DNA of 64,000 nt from Sporopachydermia quercuum (taxonomy: Eukaryota), in NCBI GenBank assembly GCA_001599295.1, contig BCGN01000002.1:1116001-1180000 (forward strand), given 5' to 3'. Both the position numbers and the translations under genes were made by a program. Positions 10,699-62,567 of this stretch are shown one piece after another. Every line of letters starts with the position of its first letter. Position 1 is the stretch's first letter. The notes under the pieces are model-generated. The model worked only from the letters and a program-made list of their open reading frames with translations. It did no database searches and was not told the DNA's origin.

Positions 10699-12173
10699 TT
10701 ATTGTTTCTGCTTTTTTGCCTGTAATTTTTCACGTTTCCTTTTCTCTTCTTCCAAACGTTTCCGTTTCACTTCTCTAATCATTTTCCTCTTTTCTCGTTC
10801 TTTTAAAGAAATTTCCAAATCATATTCAACTCCGCTTTTCTTTGGTAAGTCTTCCGGTCGAGTAGGTCGTGGGAAATCCGTGAAGTATTTAGATTTCAAT
10901 GCCTGTTCTGCATTAAGTCTTTTATTAGGGTCAAGAGCAGTTAAGCTTTCCATTAGATCTAGTGCTTCAGATGTTGCTGCAGAAAATCTAGCTTTCAATT
11001 CCTGTCTGGTTGGTTGTGGNTATACTTTGACTTCAGTATAATTGGGTAAGCTACTAACATTAGGCCATATCTTTTCAGTTGGAGTTCCAAGAGCTTGGAA
11101 GGTAATATTCAATTGGTCAGCATCATCTTTCCCAGGTAAATAAGGAGTACGCAACATTAACTCTGCAAAAATTATTCCAACAGACCAAATATCTATAGCA
11201 GTTGTATAATGATTGGATCCAAATAATAATTCTGGTGCTCTATACCATCTTGTGACAACGTTTGATGTCATTATATCTCTTGGCGATATTAATGAACGAG
11301 CCAAACCAAAATCTCCAATTTTCAGTTCGCCAGTTGTAGATAGCAACAAATTGCTTGGTTTCAAATCCTAAAGAAATTCTGTTAGTCGTTTTGAAGATCA
11401 AAATTGGTAGGAGACCAATAATTAATGGAGAGCATTTCAACTCCCAGCTTTTTCTAATACAACGTTGATACAGTAATTATTATTCCATGACTAATAATGA
11501 ACCATGTTTCCAACTCTCATGTTTCTTCGATAGTACAACTTACCCTATGGAGAATGAAATGTCTATGACAATGATGAACACCTCTAAGGGTCATTAACAT
11601 CCATGATTTAACATCTGCTGCGCTGAATATTATCGTTTTATCTTTAATCAGCATTTCCAAGTCGGCTGGGAGATACTCTAACACCAAATTGAGATTTTGT
11701 TCTGTTGAAAATACATCTATTAGCTATGAAGTGAATAATAAATATGTTAATAAGAATCCAATCTATTATCAAACCTCTCGAACCAGTTTCTAAGACTGCA
11801 GGTACTATATGATCACCTGTTTTCAATTAAATAGCAGCATACCTCGATCACGTTCTCATGATCAATTTCCTGTAAAAACTTCACTTCTCTGATGGCTGAC
11901 ATGTCTAACCCATCTTTGAATTGACCTGTTTTGATCTCTTTGATGGCAACATTTCTTCCAGTTTTGATTTGACTACCAAGATACACAACAGCGTAAGTAC
12001 CTTCACCTACTTTCCTCTCTGAATGATTTAAGCGTTAGAACAGAAATCAAATCAATTTATACTTATCGGAGCTGTAAGNAATAAAAAAAAAGTTAACGAG
12101 AGACGTCTGGTCCCCCGAAAAACAACATACCCTTGGTATATCTTACTGTGGCTGTTGTGTGTATAACAGTCAT
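10699..12173 (-). CDS. KIN28: TFIIH CTD kinase Kin28/CDK7; exons 12173-12131, 12018-11843, 11723-11544, 11367-10699
   Basis: VGEGTYAVVY, DGLDMSAIREVKFLQE, HRDLKPSNLL, DFG, MTSNVVTRWYRAPELLFG after removing three canonical introns. Confidence 0.93.
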
Positions 12174-55093: not shown

Positions 55094-56914
55094 ATGATTC
55101 GGATTACTCAAGAGGAATGTATGTCATTTATAATCTTGTAGGGAAATCTATTCTTATTTATGTTTCAATTCATTCCGATCTCTAACATGATCACACAGTG
55201 GCTAAACATAAGACGAAATCTTCCTACTGGGTAGCAATTAATGGTAAAGTGTACGATGTTACAAACTTCTTACAGCAGCACCCAGGTGGTCCTAAAGTAA
55301 TTCAGAGATTAGCCGGTAAAGATGCCACCAAAGCTTTTATGAAGTTTCATGAACCAGATGCTATAAACGAACTACCGAAAGGAGCTTATAAAGGCGAATA
55401 CGTTACTTCTAAATTGGCTAATTCAACCGCTTATAGGAAGTCAATAAGCACTCAAAAACCAGCGGTTTTGAGAGGATTCATTACAGCGCCTGCTGTGAAT
55501 TCTACAAATGCACCCAAGACAGATAAAGATAATTCAGACCAAGTAATTATACCTAAGATATTACCACCTTTAAGCCATGTATTAAATTTACGAGAGTTTG
55601 AACAGTTAGCTAAAACACAACTTGATGCACCATCTTGGGCGTATTATTTTTCTGGTTCTGATGATATGGTGACAAAGAATTACAACAACATGATATTCTC
55701 AAAAGTAATCTTCAAACCAAGGATATTTGTAGATGTTGCAGAAGTGTCAACAAAATCTAGTATCTTGGGAGTCCCTACAGAGTTACCATTCTTTATTAGC
55801 CCTGCTGCTATGGCAAGATTAGCCCATCCAACTGGGGAGGTTGGAATTGCTAACGCATGTGGAAAGAAGGGAATATTACAGATGATTAGTAATAACTCTT
55901 CGATCCCTTTCGAAAAAGTTGTCAAGGAGGCTTCTAATCCCAATCAAAAGTTTTGCTTTCAACTATACGTTCAAAATGACAGACCAAAAAGTGAATCAAT
56001 GCTCAAGAGAGTTATAGGAACAGGAAAGTGTGTAGCCATAGTATTAACTTTAGACGCTGCTTGGCCCGGTAAGCGCGAAGATGATGAAAGAATCAAAAAC
56101 TTAGAGGCTGGTGATGAAGAAGAGGAAGATGATGATGAAACTCCTTCCCAGAATTCAGGTGATATCAGGGATAATCTTGATGCTGCAAAACAATCTAAAG
56201 GTGGTTTAGGAAAGGCCCTGTTTGCCGGTACCAGCGCAAGTCTGGTTTGGGATGATTTGAAATGGTTGAAGAGTCAGATTCCTGCTGATACGAAAATTGT
56301 TCTTAAAGGATTGCAACATATTCAAGATGTGATTAAAGCTTCTGAGAATCCATTTGTTGATGGTGTCATCATATCAAATCATGGAGGAAGAGCCCTTGAT
56401 TATGCTCCTCCTCCTTTACTTGTTTTAGAAGAACTGAGAAAAGTTTCCCCAGAAACATTCAACAAGATAGAAGTTTATATTGACGGTGGCATCAAAAGAG
56501 GTACTGATGTTGTGAAAGCTTTATGCATAGGTGCCAAACAAGTTGGTATAGGAAGAGCTGCCTTATATGGTCTTACAGGTTACGGTGAAGAAGGAGTCAT
56601 TCGAACCATTCAAAGTATGTTGATCCTAAAATAACTTTGCTCTAATGATTATTGTAATACGTGAGATACTAACAACCATCAATCTAGTTTTGAAAGAAGA
56701 AGTTGAAACAGCAATGAGACTTGTAGGAGTAACCTCAATTGATCAACTAGGCCCTCATCTGGTAAGTCGAAGATTTCCCAACTCATTTATCGTGAGCAAT
56801 TATTACTGGTTGATTTTCTGCATTCACTGAACTACTTATTAATTTTTATTTCTCTCATAGGTCAACCCTCGTCAATTAGACTTACTACTTGATATTCCTT
56901 TATACAAATTATAG
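55094..56914 (+). CDS. Flavocytochrome b2-like FMN-dependent alpha-hydroxy acid dehydrogenase with N-terminal cytochrome b5 domain and no presequence; exons 55094-55118, 55199-56614, 56688-56761, 56861-56914
   Basis: VYDVTNFLQQHPGG...AGKDAT...FH, WAYY, FQLY, VLKG, SNHGGR, DGGIKRGTD; three canonical introns. Confidence 0.9.
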
Positions 56915-57705
56915 ATGACGTTATGAAGTGGCTTTGAAGGTGAACGAATTAATATTTTTATATAGTATAGATATATTGAATATAAGTTTAATTATATATA
57001 CTTTAAATCTTCATCAATAAATGAACAACCGTATTTGGAGTTTGCTAAGTTTCTATTTAAGTTAATATTAGGTCTAATATCTTGAATGTTACTACTTACT
57101 TACTTCCTTAATTACTTTCTTACTTAATTCAATACTAAGATTTTGTCAGTGTTCTACATCAAGCTTCTAACAAGCAGTTATTGCTGTAGAAAACAACCAT
57201 TTTCATCTCCATCTCCATCTGGTCATGCTCTCCTTTCACGTGCTTTTTCAGCATCATCTACGTTAGGTCTCCTTTCATACTCTATATGATGATCCTCTCG
57301 TCAATTCGCCAATTAATCTGAAAGAGCGTATCAAATTGGAAATTTTAGATTCAAATTGCATATGCTTCATATAAATCAGTAAAATACTTTCTTCTCCTTG
57401 TTAGAGGCCAGTTCTAACTAATAAAACAAGAGAAAGCAAGGAAGAAAAAATTATTAAAATAGAAAATCATTAGGATTTGAATGGTATTCCATCAAGCCAT
57501 TTATAATTGTATAGCAACAGAAGAACTAAGTACTTATCTGGTAGTAGTAGTAGTTCTTTATCTTTATTCAATTAGTATTGTGTGTCTGATTAATTGATTG
57601 CAGAGAGGTCGAGGATTATTTGCAATTCAACTTCTAGTTGTGTCTATTTTGTAGTACACGAATTAGCTTAATTCTGTGGATTGATTATTAAATTAATTCA
57701 CGAAG

Positions 57706-60700
57706 ATGCATGTATTGGTATGTAACTTGAGAAGAAACTTGAAGTTTGAGCAGTCATGGTTGTTTATATCCTTAAGACAGCTGAGAGAGTTGCGTTAGAA
57801 GAAGAATACAATCAAAGAATGGTTGGACTAACAATGGACAATCGCAGGTTACCAATGATGATGGTCCCCCAAATGATTTGACCTCACCTTATATCAGATA
57901 CTTCGTTGAAGCTTTGCATAAATATACGGACTGGGAGATTTCTGTGGTACTACCAAATACTCAAAGGTAAGTTATTGAAAATGATGCTTAGCTGGATAGA
58001 AGAGAGTGACCTCAAATTATCCTGGTGGTAATTTTTGTTGTAGGACACAATGTTTTTCTCTGAGTGTAGCTGTTGGTACTAACACTTAATTATAATGACA
58101 GATCATGGATTGGCAAAGCTCACTTTGCAGGAAAGAATTTAACAGCATCATTTATAAAGCCATCATATAATAATAACACGTTTGAAGGACCAACAGCACT
58201 TCCTCAAGATGACGGATCAGAAGAATGGGTTCTTTTAGATGGTACACCTGCTTCCTGTACAGATATTGGAATCCATCATATTGGTAAACAAAAAAGCCCA
58301 ATTGATTTGGTTATATCAGGTCCAAATTATGGTAGAAACTGTACTGCAGTTTATATCATGGCCAGTGGTACAGTTGGTGCTGCAATGGAAGGCGCATTAG
58401 CAGGTGTGAAATCAATTGGTCTGTCATATGCATTTGAATCCCGTGATCATGATCCAGTAATAATCACTCAAGCTTCTAAAAATGCAGTTCGTATCATTGA
58501 TCACTTGTATAAAAATTGGTCAAATGATAAATCAGTTGATCTTTACACTATCAACATTCCATTAGTGAAGTCGTTGAACGATAATACGGAAATATATTTT
58601 TGTCCTATTTTACAGAATCGATGGGGCAGCGTTTTCGAACAAAGAGAACCTGAACCCGAAGCTAGCACTGAAGATATAATAGATGGAAGTGAACTTCAAA
58701 AGATTCAATACCATTGGAAGCCAGATTTCACAGCAGTACATAAATCTGTTGTTGCAAGTGAAAATGATGGCATCAATGATGGATTGATAGTTCATAAAGG
58801 CATGATTAGGTATGTTGAGATCTGAGTTTCAGAATGGGTATAGTTTTTTTGAGCTCTTTTGAGTTTTAGTTGGTCCCCTGGGGTTTTAGAGATTTTTATT
58901 AACATATATTTTTCTTCTAGCGTTACACCATTAAGAGCTACTTTCAAAGATGTGCCAGTTTCTGGGAGATTAGTTTTGTAAGTAGCATATTATATATTTT
59001 ACAGCATGCAAATTTGAATTGATTTATTGGTATGGAGTGAGATCAATTTCATGAGATAATTTTTTTCGTAAGAAGTAATTTTAGCAACTTGACGGTTATT
59101 GCATACCTATCATGACAAGAATTTCTCCTCCCGGATGATTTTTATTTTGAAAGTATTGGCCTTGTTGTCAAACTTTCATCAACAAGCTTCCTCGCGCATA
59201 CATACTTCAAATAAAACTTCCAATACAATCTTTGAATTATTTCTACGTTCAAATTTAGGAGGATTTGTTGTAACTGTACATTCAACATGCATGGGAAGTC
59301 TAGTCATTATTAATAAGTTACTAACATTGGTTACTTCACTTTTTGTTCTAAGGGAGAATAAATTCAGCAATCAAGAAAACGTTGAAAAGCAAGCATTAAT
59401 TACTATTTCTAACTCAAACTACATCTATCTTCCTATAAAGGAAGCTTTGGATAAATATTTGCCAGAAGTTCAAATTATATCTTCGAAAGATCAAGTCAGC
59501 GATAACGTGAAAAAGCTCTTTCAATATGGTGAATACGAGGATTTAGACTTTGACCAAATCATGGAAAACAAAGATTACTTGTCTTGTGCATATATCTATC
59601 GGTATGTGAACTGTTTGGAGAATAATATTGATGACATAGCATCATTTGCGCTGTAGTTCTAACTTTGGATGGATGCTTTTGTTCTTTTTATGGTAGGGTG
59701 AACCTTTTTATCTTTGAACTAACAAAATACTCTCATGTTTATAGAAAAGCATTGATCAGAAAGCATTATCTAGCTAGAACAATTCTAACATACATTGCTA
59801 AGAATCCCAATTCTATCCTGAAGAAAGCTTTTCCTGAGACTTTTAACATTGAAGTTGACTATGCAAGATTTTTAGATGATGCATTGGATGAGGCATATGA
59901 ATTAAGAGAAGAAATTGAAGAAGGAAAAAACGTTTGGATTTTGAAACCTAGTATGAGCGATAAAGGACAAGGTATTCGTATTTTTAGAACAATTGAGGAA
60001 CTAGAAGATATATTTGATGAATTTGAAGAAGAAGAAGAAGAAGAAGAAGAAAAAGAAGAAAAAGAAGAAAGGGAGGAAAATGATGAGTCAACAGAAAATG
60101 GTGCTGCTAATTCAGATATCGAAAGTAAACTACGAAAGCAATCACATGGCTCTTTCTTTGATAATGGTGTTATAGTCTCTCAATTGAGAGATTTTGTCGT
60201 CCAGAAGTATATTCATAATCCTCTACTTCTAAATGAATATGATAACCGCAAATTTCATATCCGAACATACATTCTAAGTGTCGGTGCTTTACAAGTTTAT
60301 ACCTACAAACAAATGTTAGCATTATTTGCTTCAACACCTTATCCAAGCTCTTTAGATTCAAACATTTTGGACAGTGATTTAAATAGTCATCTAACTAATA
60401 CTTGTCTTCAATCTGATCCCAATGAGGCGACAGTGGTGGAAGTCAGTGAATTGAAAGGTTTGGAACCTGAACAGAAATCAAGGATCTTCAATCAAATTGA
60501 TGAGATTGTTAAGGATTTGTTTTCAGCTGCTGTTAATAACGATAGAATTAACTTTCAGCCGTTACCGAACGCTTATGAAGTTTTTGGAGTTGATTTCTTA
60601 GTTGACTCTGATTTGAATGTTAGTTTACTAGAAGTTAACGCATATCCCGATTTTAAGCAAACTGGTGATGAATTGAAAGATGTGATTTATGGTTTATTTG

Positions 60701-60810
60701 ATGCAGTAGTACAACAAGCAGTTGTACCCTTCTTTAAATCGTCAGAATCCAAATCAATTTCAAAATTCTTTTCTCCTGTATTAAAGCTTGACGTCAATGG
60801 CTCATGGTGA
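57706..60810 (+). CDS. PBY1: SurE-family nucleotidase / tubulin-tyrosine-ligase-like fusion protein Pby1; exons 57706-57717, 57848-57966, 58102-58809, 58921-58977, 59353-59601, 59745-60810
   Basis: SurE: MHVLVTNDDGPP, RSWIGKAH, DGTPASC, ISGPNYGRN, SGTVGAA, SVTPL. TTL: QYGEYEDLDF, YIYRKALIRKHYL, WILKPSMSDKGQGI, RKFHIR, HLTNTCLQ, LLEVNAYPDF. Confidence 0.9.
60025..60051 (+). repeat. (GAA)9 coding microsatellite (poly-Glu) in the PBY1 TTL domain
   Basis: Nine tandem GAA units followed by a degenerate continuation. Confidence 0.9.
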
Positions 60811-61260
60811 AACAAAAGTTAATCAAAATGGATCTATATATAACATTTATAAGCATCTTCGCTTTGAACATCATATAAATGCATATGGCTGATGTATCAA
60901 AGGGTTTGTTTATTAAGACTCCGCTATATGAATCTAAGAGTAGTTTATACGCCTGCAAACTACAACATGATAGGGCACAGCAAGTTAACGAAGTAAATAG
61001 CATACAAACACGAGATAACAAAGAATATACAGATTGTGATTAACGATACCAATCAAATAATCACCAAAGCTAAAACAATCACAACCCATGCACACTTCGC
61101 ACTTCAATTATTCACTGAGTCATCAAAATAATACACTTTCATATTTGCTTCATCATTCTCTCAGAGCATTTACCTACATTTCTAAACCCTAAACTTCTAA
61201 TTAAACAATAATAACAAAAATTAAAGACCCGCTGTTAAACTTATCACCTAGAAAAATACA

Positions 61261-62567
61261 TTATTTTTTATCTTCTGTATTGTTCTGAGCTTCATCAACA
61301 ATGATCCTCTTTCCAGATGCAGCCCCAACATTCTCATCAACATCACCTGCCATTTCTTTACTCCATCTATAGATAAGATTCTTAAGACGTTCTGCTCTAA
61401 CTAACCCTAGTCTTACTGTGCGCATGCAACGAATAAACTTTTCATTGCGCTGAAGAGCAATCTGAGTTAATTGTCTAGTCTCTTCTGCATTTTCTGGAGT
61501 TATTCCAAAATTAACATCAAAAGGAATTCTTGGTAAAGCAAAAAATGAGCTTTCTTCATCTAATTCTTCTTGAGCAGCTTGAACTTGAGCAGCTTGTTTT
61601 CTTGTTATCCTTTTGTTTGCAATTTNTTCTGGCTCAGGTGACGATTCTTTAGTTTCATTAGTTTCTGAAGTCTCGGCAGCAGTTCCATCTTGATTTTCAT
61701 CTTTCACATCACCAACTGATACAGAACTAGTTGCAACAGATTTGCTATTGTTGTTGTTATTACTATCTTCACTCTTGCTATCATTAGTTTTATCATCTGT
61801 GAAACCAAAAGTCGATATAGAAGAATTCTGAGAGTAAGGAGAAGCACTTTTCAAACTTCCAATAACTTCTTCTAGCAGCCCTTTCGTTTTATTCAACGAT
61901 AAATTCTCGTCATAATCAGGAAGGTTTAATTTTTCAGGTAACAAAAAGGAAGGGTCATCACCCAAGAAAACTTGCATCAAATTAGAGAACTGTACAACAT
62001 TCTTCTGTTCTTCACTAATGACATCTAAGGCTCTAGCCGCTAGAGTTCGAAGGGTTCCACCAGTGAAAGTGCGAGATATTGCTTTATGACTAACTATTTC
62101 AGCAGGATCCGTTATTGGTGCAAGCAATTCCTCAAGTTTGATGTTAGCAAGAATATCCCCTTCATCAATTCCATTTTCCTGATTATCGGTATCATTCGTA
62201 GATTCTTCATCATCTGCATTCCTTATTTTTCTTTTCTTATATAATATTGGTCTTTTGAACCCTTTATATGAAGCATAACCATATCTAGAGGTCGACANAG
62301 TAGTACTACCCATTCTTCCTTCATGGATTTGAGATGCCCCTCTTTTTAACTTAAGACCCCTGTTGGGAACACCTTCTTCAATTGATGAAGCATCAGAATC
62401 AACATCTTCTTCTTCATCTCCTCGCTTCACCGCTTCCTTGAATTTTCTAAAAAAGAAACAAATAAAAAGTTAGCATCAATAAATTCCCACTATACTAACT
62501 AAAATCAAACCACAATCAAATATCAATTAACATACGCTATACTAGCAAGGCTCTTCTGATCAATCAT
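61261..62567 (-). CDS. RXT2: Rpd3L histone deacetylase complex subunit Rxt2-like; exons 62567-62536, 62446-61261
   Basis: KFKEAVKR, NRGLKLKRGA, IKLEELLAPITDPAEIVSHKAISRTF, AEETRQLTQIALQRNEKFIR. Convergent with PBY1, as in S. cerevisiae. Confidence 0.8.

Follow-up and report, generated by a model that had tools for sequence, protein, structure and literature searches.

The question raised by this locus is whether the long intron between the two enzyme domains of a Sporopachydermia quercuum fusion gene is simply removed, or whether its fate decides between two proteins. The initial annotation had proposed that intronic polyadenylation or retention of this intron (intron 4) could yield a free SurE nucleotidase while splicing yields a SurE-TTL fusion, and had added that the intron could be a relic of intergenic DNA at the point of fusion. 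Both proposals were examined computationally in the 64,000-nucleotide stretch of DNA that contains the gene (hereafter the window) and at homologous loci of other fungi.

A six-exon gene is predicted to encode a two-domain PBY1 orthologue

Inspection of the window reveals a previously unannotated gene that we identify, by its predicted protein, as the PBY1 orthologue of a budding yeast, with a SurE-like N-terminal half and a TTL/ATP-grasp C-terminal half (Table 1). The exon 3 product matches Pfam PF01975 (SurE) with E 6e-32 over profile positions 38-188 of 189, where the NDDGP start of the domain is supplied by exons 1-2, and the exon 6 product matches Pfam PF03133 (TTL) with E 5.7e-58. The short exon 1 agrees with the homologue start MHVL(I/V)TNDDGPP, as in the ORF of the Geotrichum candidum locus (L001), and the spliced product aligns end to end with full-length homologues, the tblastn alignment to L001 spanning residues 1-736. 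Over exon 3 the closest relatives share 55-59% identity; among the 120 ORFs listed, the closest named ones, from Wickerhamomyces ciferrii and Cyberlindnera fabianii, share only 55-58%. We know of no intron in the PBY1 gene of S. cerevisiae. The two-part SurE-like plus ATP-grasp/TTL architecture is the same as that of S. cerevisiae and K. lactis Pby1, as described in the available text of Charenton et al. (2020; PMC7293026), and in comparison with these the gene here is split by five introns.

Table 1. Positions of the predicted PBY1 gene, its exons and introns, and sequence elements of intron 4 within the window.
Feature	Position	Strand	Description
Predicted PBY1 gene, six exons	57706-60810	+	spliced frame continuous, 736 aa
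Exon 1	57706..57717	+	ATG CAT GTA TTG = MHVL
Intron 1	57718..57847	+	130 nt, phase 0, GTATGT..GACTAAC..CAG
Exon 2	57848..57966	+	SurE domain start, VTNDDGPP...
Intron 2	57967..58101	+	135 nt, phase 2, GTAAGT..TACTAAC..CAG
Exon 3	58102..58809	+	bulk of SurE domain, Pfam PF01975
Intron 3	58810..58920	+	111 nt, phase 2, GTATGT..TATTAAC..TAG
Exon 4	58921..58977	+	57 nt, SVTPLRATFKDVPVSGRLV + TT, conserved C-terminal SurE motif
Intron 4	58978..59352	+	375 nt, phase 2
Donor of intron 4, with last two exon nucleotides	58976..58983	+	TT/GTAAGT
Stop codon in unspliced intron 4 RNA	58979-58981	+	TAA
Tract in intron 4	58988-59000	+	TATTATATATTTT
TATATA within the tract	58991-58996	+	
Stop-free frame into exon 5	59093..59352	+	86 codons; in-frame ATGs 59135, 59291
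Branch-point motif	59319-59325	+	TACTAAC, branch A at 59324
Acceptor of intron 4	59350..59352	+	AAG
Exon 5	59353..59601	+	short variable linker (ENKFSNQENVEKQ) + N-terminal part of ATP-grasp/TTL half
Intron 5	59602..59744	+	143 nt, phase 2, GTATGT..AACTAAC..TAG
Exon 6	59745..60810	+	TTL/ATP-grasp domain; stop TGA 60808-60810

Intron 4 is long, carries consensus splice signals and contains an automatic stop

The anatomy of intron 4 given by the initial annotation holds throughout. Its length is 2.6-3.4 times that of the gene's other four introns, the annotated range of 111-143 nt for these agreeing with Table 1, and it is the longest of the seven introns detectable in the window, where the two outside PBY1 measure 73 and 176 nt. 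The distance from donor to branch-point motif is 341 nt in intron 4 versus 87-115 nt in the other four. Both its donor and its branch point are perfect matches to the consensus, and the AAG acceptor ends 27 nt past TACTAAC, as annotated, and is the first AG 3' of the branch point. That is to say, intron 4 has the features by which budding-yeast introns are recognized, namely a GTAWGT donor, a TACTAAC-type branch point and an AG 10-50 nt downstream. Splicing is further supported by protein continuity: 40 homologues align across the exon 4/5 junction, from the conserved SVTPLxAxF..GEIKL block encoded by exon 4 into the conserved ..YIYP.. block with which exon 5 carries on. These signals and the flanking protein identify 58978-59352 as a true spliceosomal intron that separates the two enzyme halves. 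A shorter intron 4 with a longer exon 5 was considered and rejected, since the sole frame-compatible open upstream AG, at 59298, lies 5' of the branch point.

Because the intron is in phase 2 and its donor is GTAAGT, unspliced RNA reads TTG TAA, and the protein would end as ...GRLVL, exactly as had been pointed out. The accompanying caveat that any phase-2 GTAAGT intron creates such a stop automatically is also correct, and is illustrated within the same gene by intron 2, whose unspliced RNA likewise has an in-frame stop (AGG TAA). The TATTATATATTTT tract is present where it had been placed, but TATATA is not enriched in intron 4 over the background of the window. TATATA occurs in the non-ORF DNA at 1.32 per kb per strand, which gives a probability of 0.39 for at least one copy in 375 nt; the probability of a copy within 25 nt of the donor is 0.033, in a test chosen after the fact. 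TATATA is no marker of gene ends in the window, because it follows the stop within 100 nt in only two of 22 long ORFs, at a background of 0.12 per 100 nt. Besides this single TATATA (58991), intron 4 holds a single AATAAA-like word (59210) as a candidate poly(A) signal. None of the three sequence features put forward for a switch, namely the stop, the TATATA and the splice signals, is diagnostic.

Intron 4 begins where natural SurE proteins end

The placement of intron 4 at the end of the SurE domain is upheld by comparison with natural SurE proteins, which end near the motif encoded by exon 4. In the bacterial SurE chain 2wqk_A (251 aa), the ..SVTPL.. motif occupies residues 215-235, about 16 residues before the chain end, and the stand-alone bacterial proteins in the PDB (2wqk, 4zg5) end a few residues past ..SVTPL..(E)I.L, where intron 4 begins. 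Free-standing fungal SurE genes stop 2-5 residues past the SVTPL motif, and stand-alone fungal proteins (L010, L014 and L017, and the 314- and 318-aa proteins of Ascoidea rubescens) likewise end near the start of intron 4. A truncated PBY1 product would be a complete SurE protein, given that free-standing ones from fungi and bacteria have their ends within a few residues of this point. The stand-alone nucleotidases themselves are separate genes with ordinary stop codons, and not isoforms of a fusion gene. Among the 120 ORFs listed, 60 reach the exon-4 motif; 59 of these end a few residues past it, with tails of 0-4 residues beyond the motif, and the 60th breaks off before the motif is complete.

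The boundary intron is conserved in position and phase

Conservation of intron position and phase in relatives, which the initial annotation had suggested comparing, is pronounced. Eight PBY1 loci of other fungi were compared (L002-L007, L011 and L001, the last being the Geotrichum candidum locus, which lacks a donor), and seven of them carry a phase-2 GTRAGT intron at the SurE/TTL junction, within one codon of the position here. In L002, L003, L005, L006, L007 and L011 this boundary intron splits an L codon (xT/G), and in L004 it lies one codon later (GA/G). The donor is GTGAGT at four loci and GTAAGT at three, and an immediate stop results at all seven. Its recurrence in other fungi shows that the position of intron 4 is not accidental, and its distribution indicates that it was already present in the last ancestor shared by budding yeasts and filamentous ascomycetes. 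Of the 120 proteins listed, every one that bears a name is ascomycete. This ancient age of the boundary-intron position is, as read from the compared loci, what is new here. A full-text literature search (titles and abstract starts) gave no report on the PBY1 boundary intron among the matches listed and none on the gene structure of Pby1 among the matches listed, and a search on fungal gene fission at an intron/domain boundary gave nothing related.

The conservation is one of position rather than of length or sequence. Boundary introns at L002-L007 and L011 are predicted to be 57-318 nt long versus 375 nt here, and their sequences have no evident similarity to intron 4 when compared without formal alignment. 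By predicted acceptors, the boundary intron is longer than intron 3 at most other loci, at about 318 versus about 65 nt in L006 and L007 and 138 versus about 60 nt in L003. The intron 3 site is also intron-bearing in L002, L003, L006, L007 and L011, and it interrupts 69 of the 120 ORFs listed. Where intron 3 has been lost (L004, L005) the boundary intron is kept, and no locus has the opposite pattern.

The two phase-2 sites differ in how often an ORF reads on past the donor. Not one of 59 ORFs does so at the boundary site, as against 32 of 69 at the intron 3 site (P = 3e-11 in a naive Fisher test with no correction for relatedness). The intron 3 tally is alignment-anchored, and inspection assigns three of its rows to 'contiguous' and ten to 'immediate stop'. 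With ORFs grouped into single-linkage clusters at 60% identity, read-on occurs in none of eight clusters at the boundary site and in six clusters at the intron 3 site.

The junction is a gene boundary in Geotrichum and in some public annotations

The Geotrichum candidum locus, whose SurE ORF is 100% identical to a protein of that name, has the same junction as the gene here with a dead donor, in which G has become T (AT/TTAAGT), and with no usable donor or TACTAAC. The SurE ORF stops at the TAA that corresponds to donor positions 2-4, and the TTL ORF begins at a separate ATG 135 nt past that stop, such that the locus comprises two reading frames and not one spliced gene. One group of related TTL ORFs starts with M(T/S)xKTALITID. 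Geotrichum thus presents a clean natural reverse of gene fusion, where a point change in the donor makes the intron a spacer and the TAA a real stop. Public annotations also cut PBY1 in two, because the boundary intron has a built-in stop; the gene is divided at the boundary in Brettanomyces nanus (FOA43_003579 / 003580), Ogataea philodendri (OGAPHI_005699 / 005700), Candida boidinii (B5S29_g4713 / g4712) and Exophiala xenobiotica (KIW52986 / KIW52985).

Constitutive splicing is the probable fate of intron 4

We consider it probable that intron 4 is an ordinary, old and unusually long intron that is most likely removed constitutively. Splicing would then yield one 736-aa fusion protein, the in-frame TAA would be a by-product of phase 2 and the GTAAGT donor, the TATATA tract would be ordinary AT-rich intron sequence, and the extra length, which lies wholly between donor and branch point, would most likely be neutral. 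Counted against this reading are the unusual length of the intron, its persistence, the uniformly immediate stop at boundary donors, and the existence of the SurE and TTL halves as separate genes in Geotrichum. That a consensus intron can be retained, as for NUP116/NUP100 in the available text of Hurtig et al. (2020; PMC7491326), weighs against it as well.

A choice between splicing and termination, in which retention of intron 4 or polyadenylation within it yields a free 299-aa SurE protein and splicing yields the SurE-TTL fusion, is possible but unlikely. In favor of such a choice, the end of the truncated product would coincide with that of natural SurE proteins, the stop is immediate at 59 of 59 ORF ends and at seven of seven intron-bearing loci, the intron is long and persistent, and in Geotrichum candidum the former donor TAA terminates a SurE gene of its own. 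Functional separability of the two halves in S. cerevisiae points the same way: in the available text of PMC7293026, Dcp1/Edc3 binding and targeting to P-bodies are properties of the C-terminal half of Pby1 on its own, whereas the N-terminal half on its own is spread diffusely through the cytoplasm. Dcp2/Dcp1/Edc3 binding and P-body localization are known only for the S. cerevisiae and K. lactis proteins. A precedent is the retained FES1 intron of S. cerevisiae, in which four sense codons lead to a stop and a poly(A) site is also present (Gowda et al. 2016, cited from the available text of Hurtig et al. 2020, PMC7491326). The same text describes how alternatively spliced genes give way to separate genes in other yeasts. 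Like intron 4, the FES1 intron has a stop just inside it and in principle offers a splice-or-end choice between two proteins. In contrast, the poly(A) site and both isoforms have been demonstrated for FES1 in that account, whereas PBY1 here is known from sequence alone; the FES1 intron lies near the 3' end and alters a short tail only, whereas that of PBY1 sits mid-gene, and a short form of the protein would be missing a whole 437-aa half.

Several observations reduce the weight of these arguments. The stop is automatic and has its counterpart in intron 2, TATATA stands at background and is no hallmark of gene ends in the window, and the donor and branch point are perfect. The uniform GTRAGT has a neutral account, where the exon ends in T or A and not in the preferred G, and the full intron-side consensus may be required for U1 pairing. 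In a full-length RNA that keeps the intron, about 1.8 kb would follow the stop. Such an RNA is expected to be a target of NMD, which counts further against a splice-or-terminate choice.

That intron 4 descends from spacer DNA which formerly lay between independent SurE and TTL genes, as the initial annotation had also suggested, is unlikely. This reading concerns origin and not present function, and is compatible with the ordinary-intron explanation. The end of the SurE fold is a few residues away from the intron, and the age of the intron is roughly that of the sampled fusion proteins, because budding yeasts and Pezizomycotina-like loci have it in the same position and phase; Geotrichum exemplifies the opposite path, in which an intron became a spacer. 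Against this, the intron sequence is not conserved and therefore nothing ties intron 4 to an old spacer, an intron at a domain junction may also be a later or a fortuitous acquisition, and no TTL gene follows the SurE-only fungal genes L010, L014 and L017 within the 1.9-6 kb of downstream sequence covered.

A broader proposal, which we judge decidedly unlikely, would make the boundary intron a conserved dual-output device of ascomycete PBY1, giving free cytoplasmic SurE or a P-body-targeted fusion, with the phase-2 GTRAGT kept for that reason. On this view the two outputs would have become fixed as separate genes in lineages such as Geotrichum and perhaps in Ascoidea and Saccharomycopsis, and the long intron here would carry termination or regulatory signals.

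The stop-free frame that runs through intron 4 into exon 5 (Table 1) was evaluated as possible coding sequence and rejected on the grounds of its non-coding codon usage and its want of a real homologue. Its codon usage scores -0.200 log2 odds per codon versus +0.04 to +0.17 in the exons, and its score is equalled or exceeded by 68% of random non-coding pieces. An HMMER search against the whole library gave two matches, of which P0399 (733 aa) is repeat-derived and unrelated to PBY1, and P0398 (2761 aa, four stretches) is presumed to be repeat-derived like it. An open length of 86 codons is reached by 10 of 5000 shuffles for the exon 5 frame and by 71 of 2000 in any of the six frames.

An internal promoter, or incipient fission, in which a transcript starting in the 375-nt segment encodes the TTL half alone from ATG 59135 or 59291, is very improbable. 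The arrangement would resemble the separate TTL gene of Geotrichum, whose ORF has its own ATG, and the group of related TTL ORFs beginning M(T/S)xKTALITID lends it some support, as do the two in-frame ATGs, the rarity of so long an opening in the exon 5 frame, and a segment size that may be close to that of a short yeast promoter. These points are countered by the non-coding codon usage of the frame and its two matches, both taken as repeat-derived, by the frequency of equally long openings over six frames, and by both ATGs, which lack A at -3 and follow an out-of-frame ATG at 59112. The donor, branch point and acceptor are all intact, which speaks for continued splicing of the segment.

Budding-yeast introns do harbor snoRNAs. 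That the extra length of intron 4 hosts such a non-coding RNA or a structured regulatory element has a probability close to negligible, where length alone speaks for it and an Rfam scan of 57500-61000 at E up to 10 found no snoRNA or credible family in intron 4 (the sole match there, 19 bits to a bacterial sRNA family at 58985-59048, is taken as chance), and where the RNA fold has z = -0.97, with 16 of 100 shuffles folding at least as well. Intron 4 was also rejected as a repeat copy, blastn against the window giving only 13-18-nt chance matches.

Significance of the boundary intron for ascomycete PBY1

Taken alone, the locus is a PBY1 orthologue with an ordinary-looking intron, and its practical value lies in the comparative result: one phase-2 intron marks the junction of the SurE and ATP-grasp halves across ascomycetes. 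Were the short isoform real, it would provide a regulated way to free the nucleotidase half of Pby1 from P-body targeting, and would add a mid-gene case to the few splice-or-terminate switches known in budding yeasts.

PBY1 gene model and the end of the SurE fold

Stop-to-stop frames and junction strings across 57000-62000 give PBY1 six forward-strand exons totaling 736 codons, with phase 2 common to introns 2, 3, 4 and 5 (see table). In a 5.8-billion-protein collection, its nearest neighbors are SurE-TTL fusions of fungi that carry the names PBY1 or "survival protein SurE-like"; the best matches over exon 3 come from Wickerhamomyces ciferrii (58% identical) and Cyberlindnera fabianii (55%). 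Since the top relatives reach only 55-58% identity, the host is a budding yeast without a close relative in that collection. A Glu/Lys-rich low-complexity insert (EEEEEEEEKEEKEEREEN) sits within the TTL/ATP-grasp domain at about 60025-60085. The adjacent gene, a 402-codon open frame on the opposite strand (61261-62469), contains N bases (e.g. 61627), and the whole window holds 23 Ns.

PBY1 and related features. Introns of PBY1 are described by length, phase, donor, branch-point motif and acceptor.
Feature	Location or record	Strand	Description
PBY1 exon 1	57706-57717	+	
PBY1 exon 2	57848-57966	+	
PBY1 exon 3	58102-58809	+	Pfam SurE, E 6e-32
PBY1 exon 4	58921-58977	+	encodes conserved SVTPLxAxF..(S)GE(I/L)KL block
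PBY1 exon 5	59353-59601	+	
PBY1 exon 6	59745-60810	+	Pfam TTL, E 5.7e-58
PBY1 intron 1	57718-57847	+	130 nt, phase 0, GTATGT, GACTAAC, CAG
PBY1 intron 2	57967-58101	+	135 nt, phase 2, GTAAGT, TACTAAC, CAG
PBY1 intron 3	58810-58920	+	111 nt, phase 2, GTATGT, TATTAAC, TAG
PBY1 intron 4	58978-59352	+	375 nt, phase 2, GTAAGT, TACTAAC, AAG
PBY1 intron 5	59602-59744	+	143 nt, phase 2, GTATGT, AACTAAC, TAG
Other intron	11368-11543	-	176 nt
Other intron	56615-56687	+	73 nt, near end of ORF 55186-56634
Split PBY1	L001:782-3223		metagenome contig; two ORFs, same strand, same frame, 135 nt apart
Fungal SurE-only genes, more distant type	L010:5884-6900, L014:2894-3930, L017:143-1200		28-54% identity per matched segment
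Ascoidea rubescens / Saccharomycopsis crataegensis proteins	P0131, P0132, P0137, P0286		
Brettanomyces nanus pair	FOA43_003579 / 003580		SurE-only / TTL-only
Ogataea philodendri pair	OGAPHI_005699 / 005700		SurE-only / TTL-only
Candida boidinii pair	B5S29_g4713 / g4712		SurE-only / TTL-only
Exophiala xenobiotica pair	KIW52986 / KIW52985		SurE-only / TTL-only

Re-checking the sequence bore out the anatomy of intron 4 in the initial annotation: its coordinates and length, a donor TT/GTAAGT that reads TTG TAA if unspliced, the TATTATATATTTT tract at 58988-59000, and TACTAAC at 59319-59325 with an AAG acceptor 27 nt beyond. The excess length falls entirely in the stretch from donor to branch point, which spans 341 nt here and 87-115 nt in the gene's four other introns. 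Alignment with 40 homologues places the intron directly 3' of the conserved exon-4 block, while exon 5 opens with a short piece of length-variable linker followed by the conserved ..YIYPxL.. of the C-terminal half. Conserved blocks therefore flank the intron, such that homology supports both intron and frame.

The proposal that the SurE domain ends at this site also stands. In bacterial SurE 2wqk_A (251 aa), the D..G.vSVTPL motif occupies residues 215-235, about 16 residues before the chain end. Fungal SurE-only genes end in ordinary stops after the ..(E)I.L motif, 2-5 residues past it (L010 ..PLDLNQ, L014 ..EIILDKSHL and L017 ..EIILEK), with no TTL match in 1.9-6 kb of downstream sequence. 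The intron 4 junction is thus also where the SurE fold really ends.

Conservation of the junction intron

Conservation was followed by two routes: protein-database ORFs called uninterrupted on fungal contigs, whose ends and read-on mark introns, and a SurE-alignment scan of metagenome contigs that returned fungal loci with DNA. By the first route, 60 of the best 120 SurE-length matches reach the exon-4 motif, and 59 of these 60 end within a few residues (tails 0-4) of its last L; one breaks off earlier. Because G/TRAGT in phase 2 needs a codon ending in G, the 49 of 59 ends whose terminal residue has such a codon fit a phase-2 donor. The other ten (7 I, 2 D, 1 N) end on residues without a codon ending in G and, on this codon argument, the stops after them must be real stop codons.

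By the second route, eight PBY1-type loci cover the SurE-TTL junction and seven carry an intron there, so that the position and phase named in the initial annotation as a point of comparison are conserved in relatives. In six loci (L002, L003, L005, L006, L007, L011), the intron interrupts the L codon at the same point as intron 4 does (CT/GTGAGT or TT/GTAAGT), and the yeast locus L004 (41% G+C) is split one codon later (GA/GTAAGT..TACTAAT..TAG, 177 nt). Donors are GTGAGT in four and GTAAGT in three, all leading to an immediate TGA or TAA. Lengths of about 87, 138, 58, 318, 318, 57-120 and 177 nt follow from acceptors predicted from frame and branch-like motifs, and other fungi, too, tend to have a long boundary intron. 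The intron 3 site is occupied in L002, L003, L006, L007 and L011 and empty in L001, L004 and L005. The junction intron position is ancient.

Several public annotations (four species) hold SurE-only and TTL-only proteins with consecutive identifiers. The SurE members of the pairs have E, K or L as their last residue, compatible with the built-in stop of the intron. For Exophiala, other strains have a single 744-aa model, and the 307-aa protein matches its residues 1-307 at 96% identity. L004, which we guess from the look of its protein to be Ogataea/Brettanomyces-like, has a junction intron and thereby adds to the reading of these pairs, which are probably single PBY1 gene models cut at the stop of the boundary intron.

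Fission of PBY1

The eighth junction locus, the Geotrichum candidum-like L001, lacks the intron. Its junction reads ..AAA AT/T TAA GTT.., with the donor G replaced by T (TTAAGT), and downstream of it neither a GTAWGT or GTGAGT donor nor a TACTAAC is found. The SurE frame (338 aa) stops at 1796-1798 in the TAA of the former donor, and the TTL frame (430 aa, MSEHIGLVTIDPESYLYP...) begins 135 nt past that stop at an ATG at 1934 in A-rich context; related TTL ORFs begin M(T/S)xKTALITID at the same place. A protein named Geotrichum candidum matches the SurE ORF at 100% identity, and the same cluster includes two more members named G. reessii (93% identical) and G. galactomycetum. In Geotrichum, at least, the division of PBY1 into two reading frames is real.

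Two annotated SurE-only proteins of Ascoidea rubescens (314 and 318 aa) end ..IHLDI and ..IKLD, and a similar protein of 307 aa is present in Saccharomycopsis crataegensis. Given endings of ..LDI or ..LD, these termini cannot come from a phase-2 donor stop. The scaffolds of the A. rubescens SurE-only proteins differ in length from the one that carries its "partial" TTL protein. These proteins may represent a second, independent fission or SurE-only paralogues.

Readings of intron 4

Intron 4 is probably a plain intron, old and unusually long, that is spliced out constitutively. The initial annotation had proposed a switch, in which unspliced or intron-terminated RNA yields free SurE and spliced RNA the fusion. 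The specific arguments for it (stop, TATATA and splice signals) do not hold up as evidence. The in-frame stop is automatic for phase 2 with GTAAGT and hence no evidence of a switch; intron 2 unspliced also reads one (AGG TAA). With a density of 1.32 per kb per strand in the non-ORF DNA of the window, TATATA is expected at least once in 375 nt with P = 0.39; a post hoc criterion, a copy no more than 25 nt from the donor, gives P = 0.033. Among 22 frames of at least 200 codons, two of which end at introns, 2 (PBY1 being one) have TATATA at most 100 nt past the stop. This matches the background of 0.12, and the motif is therefore not a hallmark of gene ends in S. quercuum. Both donor and branch point match the consensus perfectly, and the AAG is the first AG past the branch point. 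No Rfam family was found in the intron and no repeat copy elsewhere in the window, and its RNA fold is not distinctive (z = -0.97).

Other features do point to something beyond a plain intron. Intron 4 is the longest of seven introns detected in the window, five of them in PBY1, in a screen that required 40 open codons on either side and missed 5'-proximal introns; one of the seven is near the end of an ORF we take, from its translation, for a flavocytochrome b2-like gene. The boundary intron is kept where intron 3 is lost (L004, L005). Boundary donors always give a stop: read-on occurs in 0 of 59 ORFs there, versus 32 of 69 ORFs at the intron 3 site, whose GTATGT donors show themselves in RYV.. 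tails. The naive Fisher P is 3e-11, for sequences that form just 12 clusters by single linkage at 60% identity; boundary endings occur in 8 of these clusters and site-3 read-on in 6. The reason may be neutral, in that exons ending in T or A, not G, may need a fully consensus intron side for U1 pairing. The halves of S. cerevisiae Pby1 are separable: according to PMC7293026, Dcp1/Edc3 binding and P-body localization are properties of the C-terminal half on its own, and the N-terminal half alone is diffuse in the cytoplasm. A precedent for the mechanism is the retained intron of S. cerevisiae FES1, in which, according to PMC7491326, four sense codons lead up to a stop and a poly(A) site is also present; by the same paper, separate genes often stand in for alternatively spliced genes in other yeasts. 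A FES1-like dual output is unlikely.

That intron 4 is a relic of the fusion, a reading that concerns origin only, we consider unlikely.

A T-run followed by TTTTAG lies at 59060-59084, 107 nt past the donor, about the usual intron size for PBY1; with no branch motif upstream and the frame off by one, a former acceptor here is only a guess.

The exon-5 frame is open for 86 codons (260 nt) upstream of the acceptor (59093-59352, the 3' two-thirds of the intron), and its in-frame ATGs at 59135 and 59291 could start a TTL-only product. This length, about equal to the excess of intron 4 over neighboring introns, is reached in 10 of 5000 dinucleotide shuffles in that frame and 71 of 2000 in any of six. 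By codon usage the frame is non-coding: it scores -0.200 log2 odds per codon, where exons score +0.04 to +0.17, and 68% of random non-coding pieces equal or exceed it. Whole-library HMMER gave two hits in all, one repeat-derived on inspection. We treat the frame as chance, with a small probability of an internal start, and an internal promoter within intron 4 is highly improbable.

Relative to the literature searched, the conservation of the junction intron across ascomycetes, the annotation splits that probably result from it and the true split of PBY1 in Geotrichum are new.
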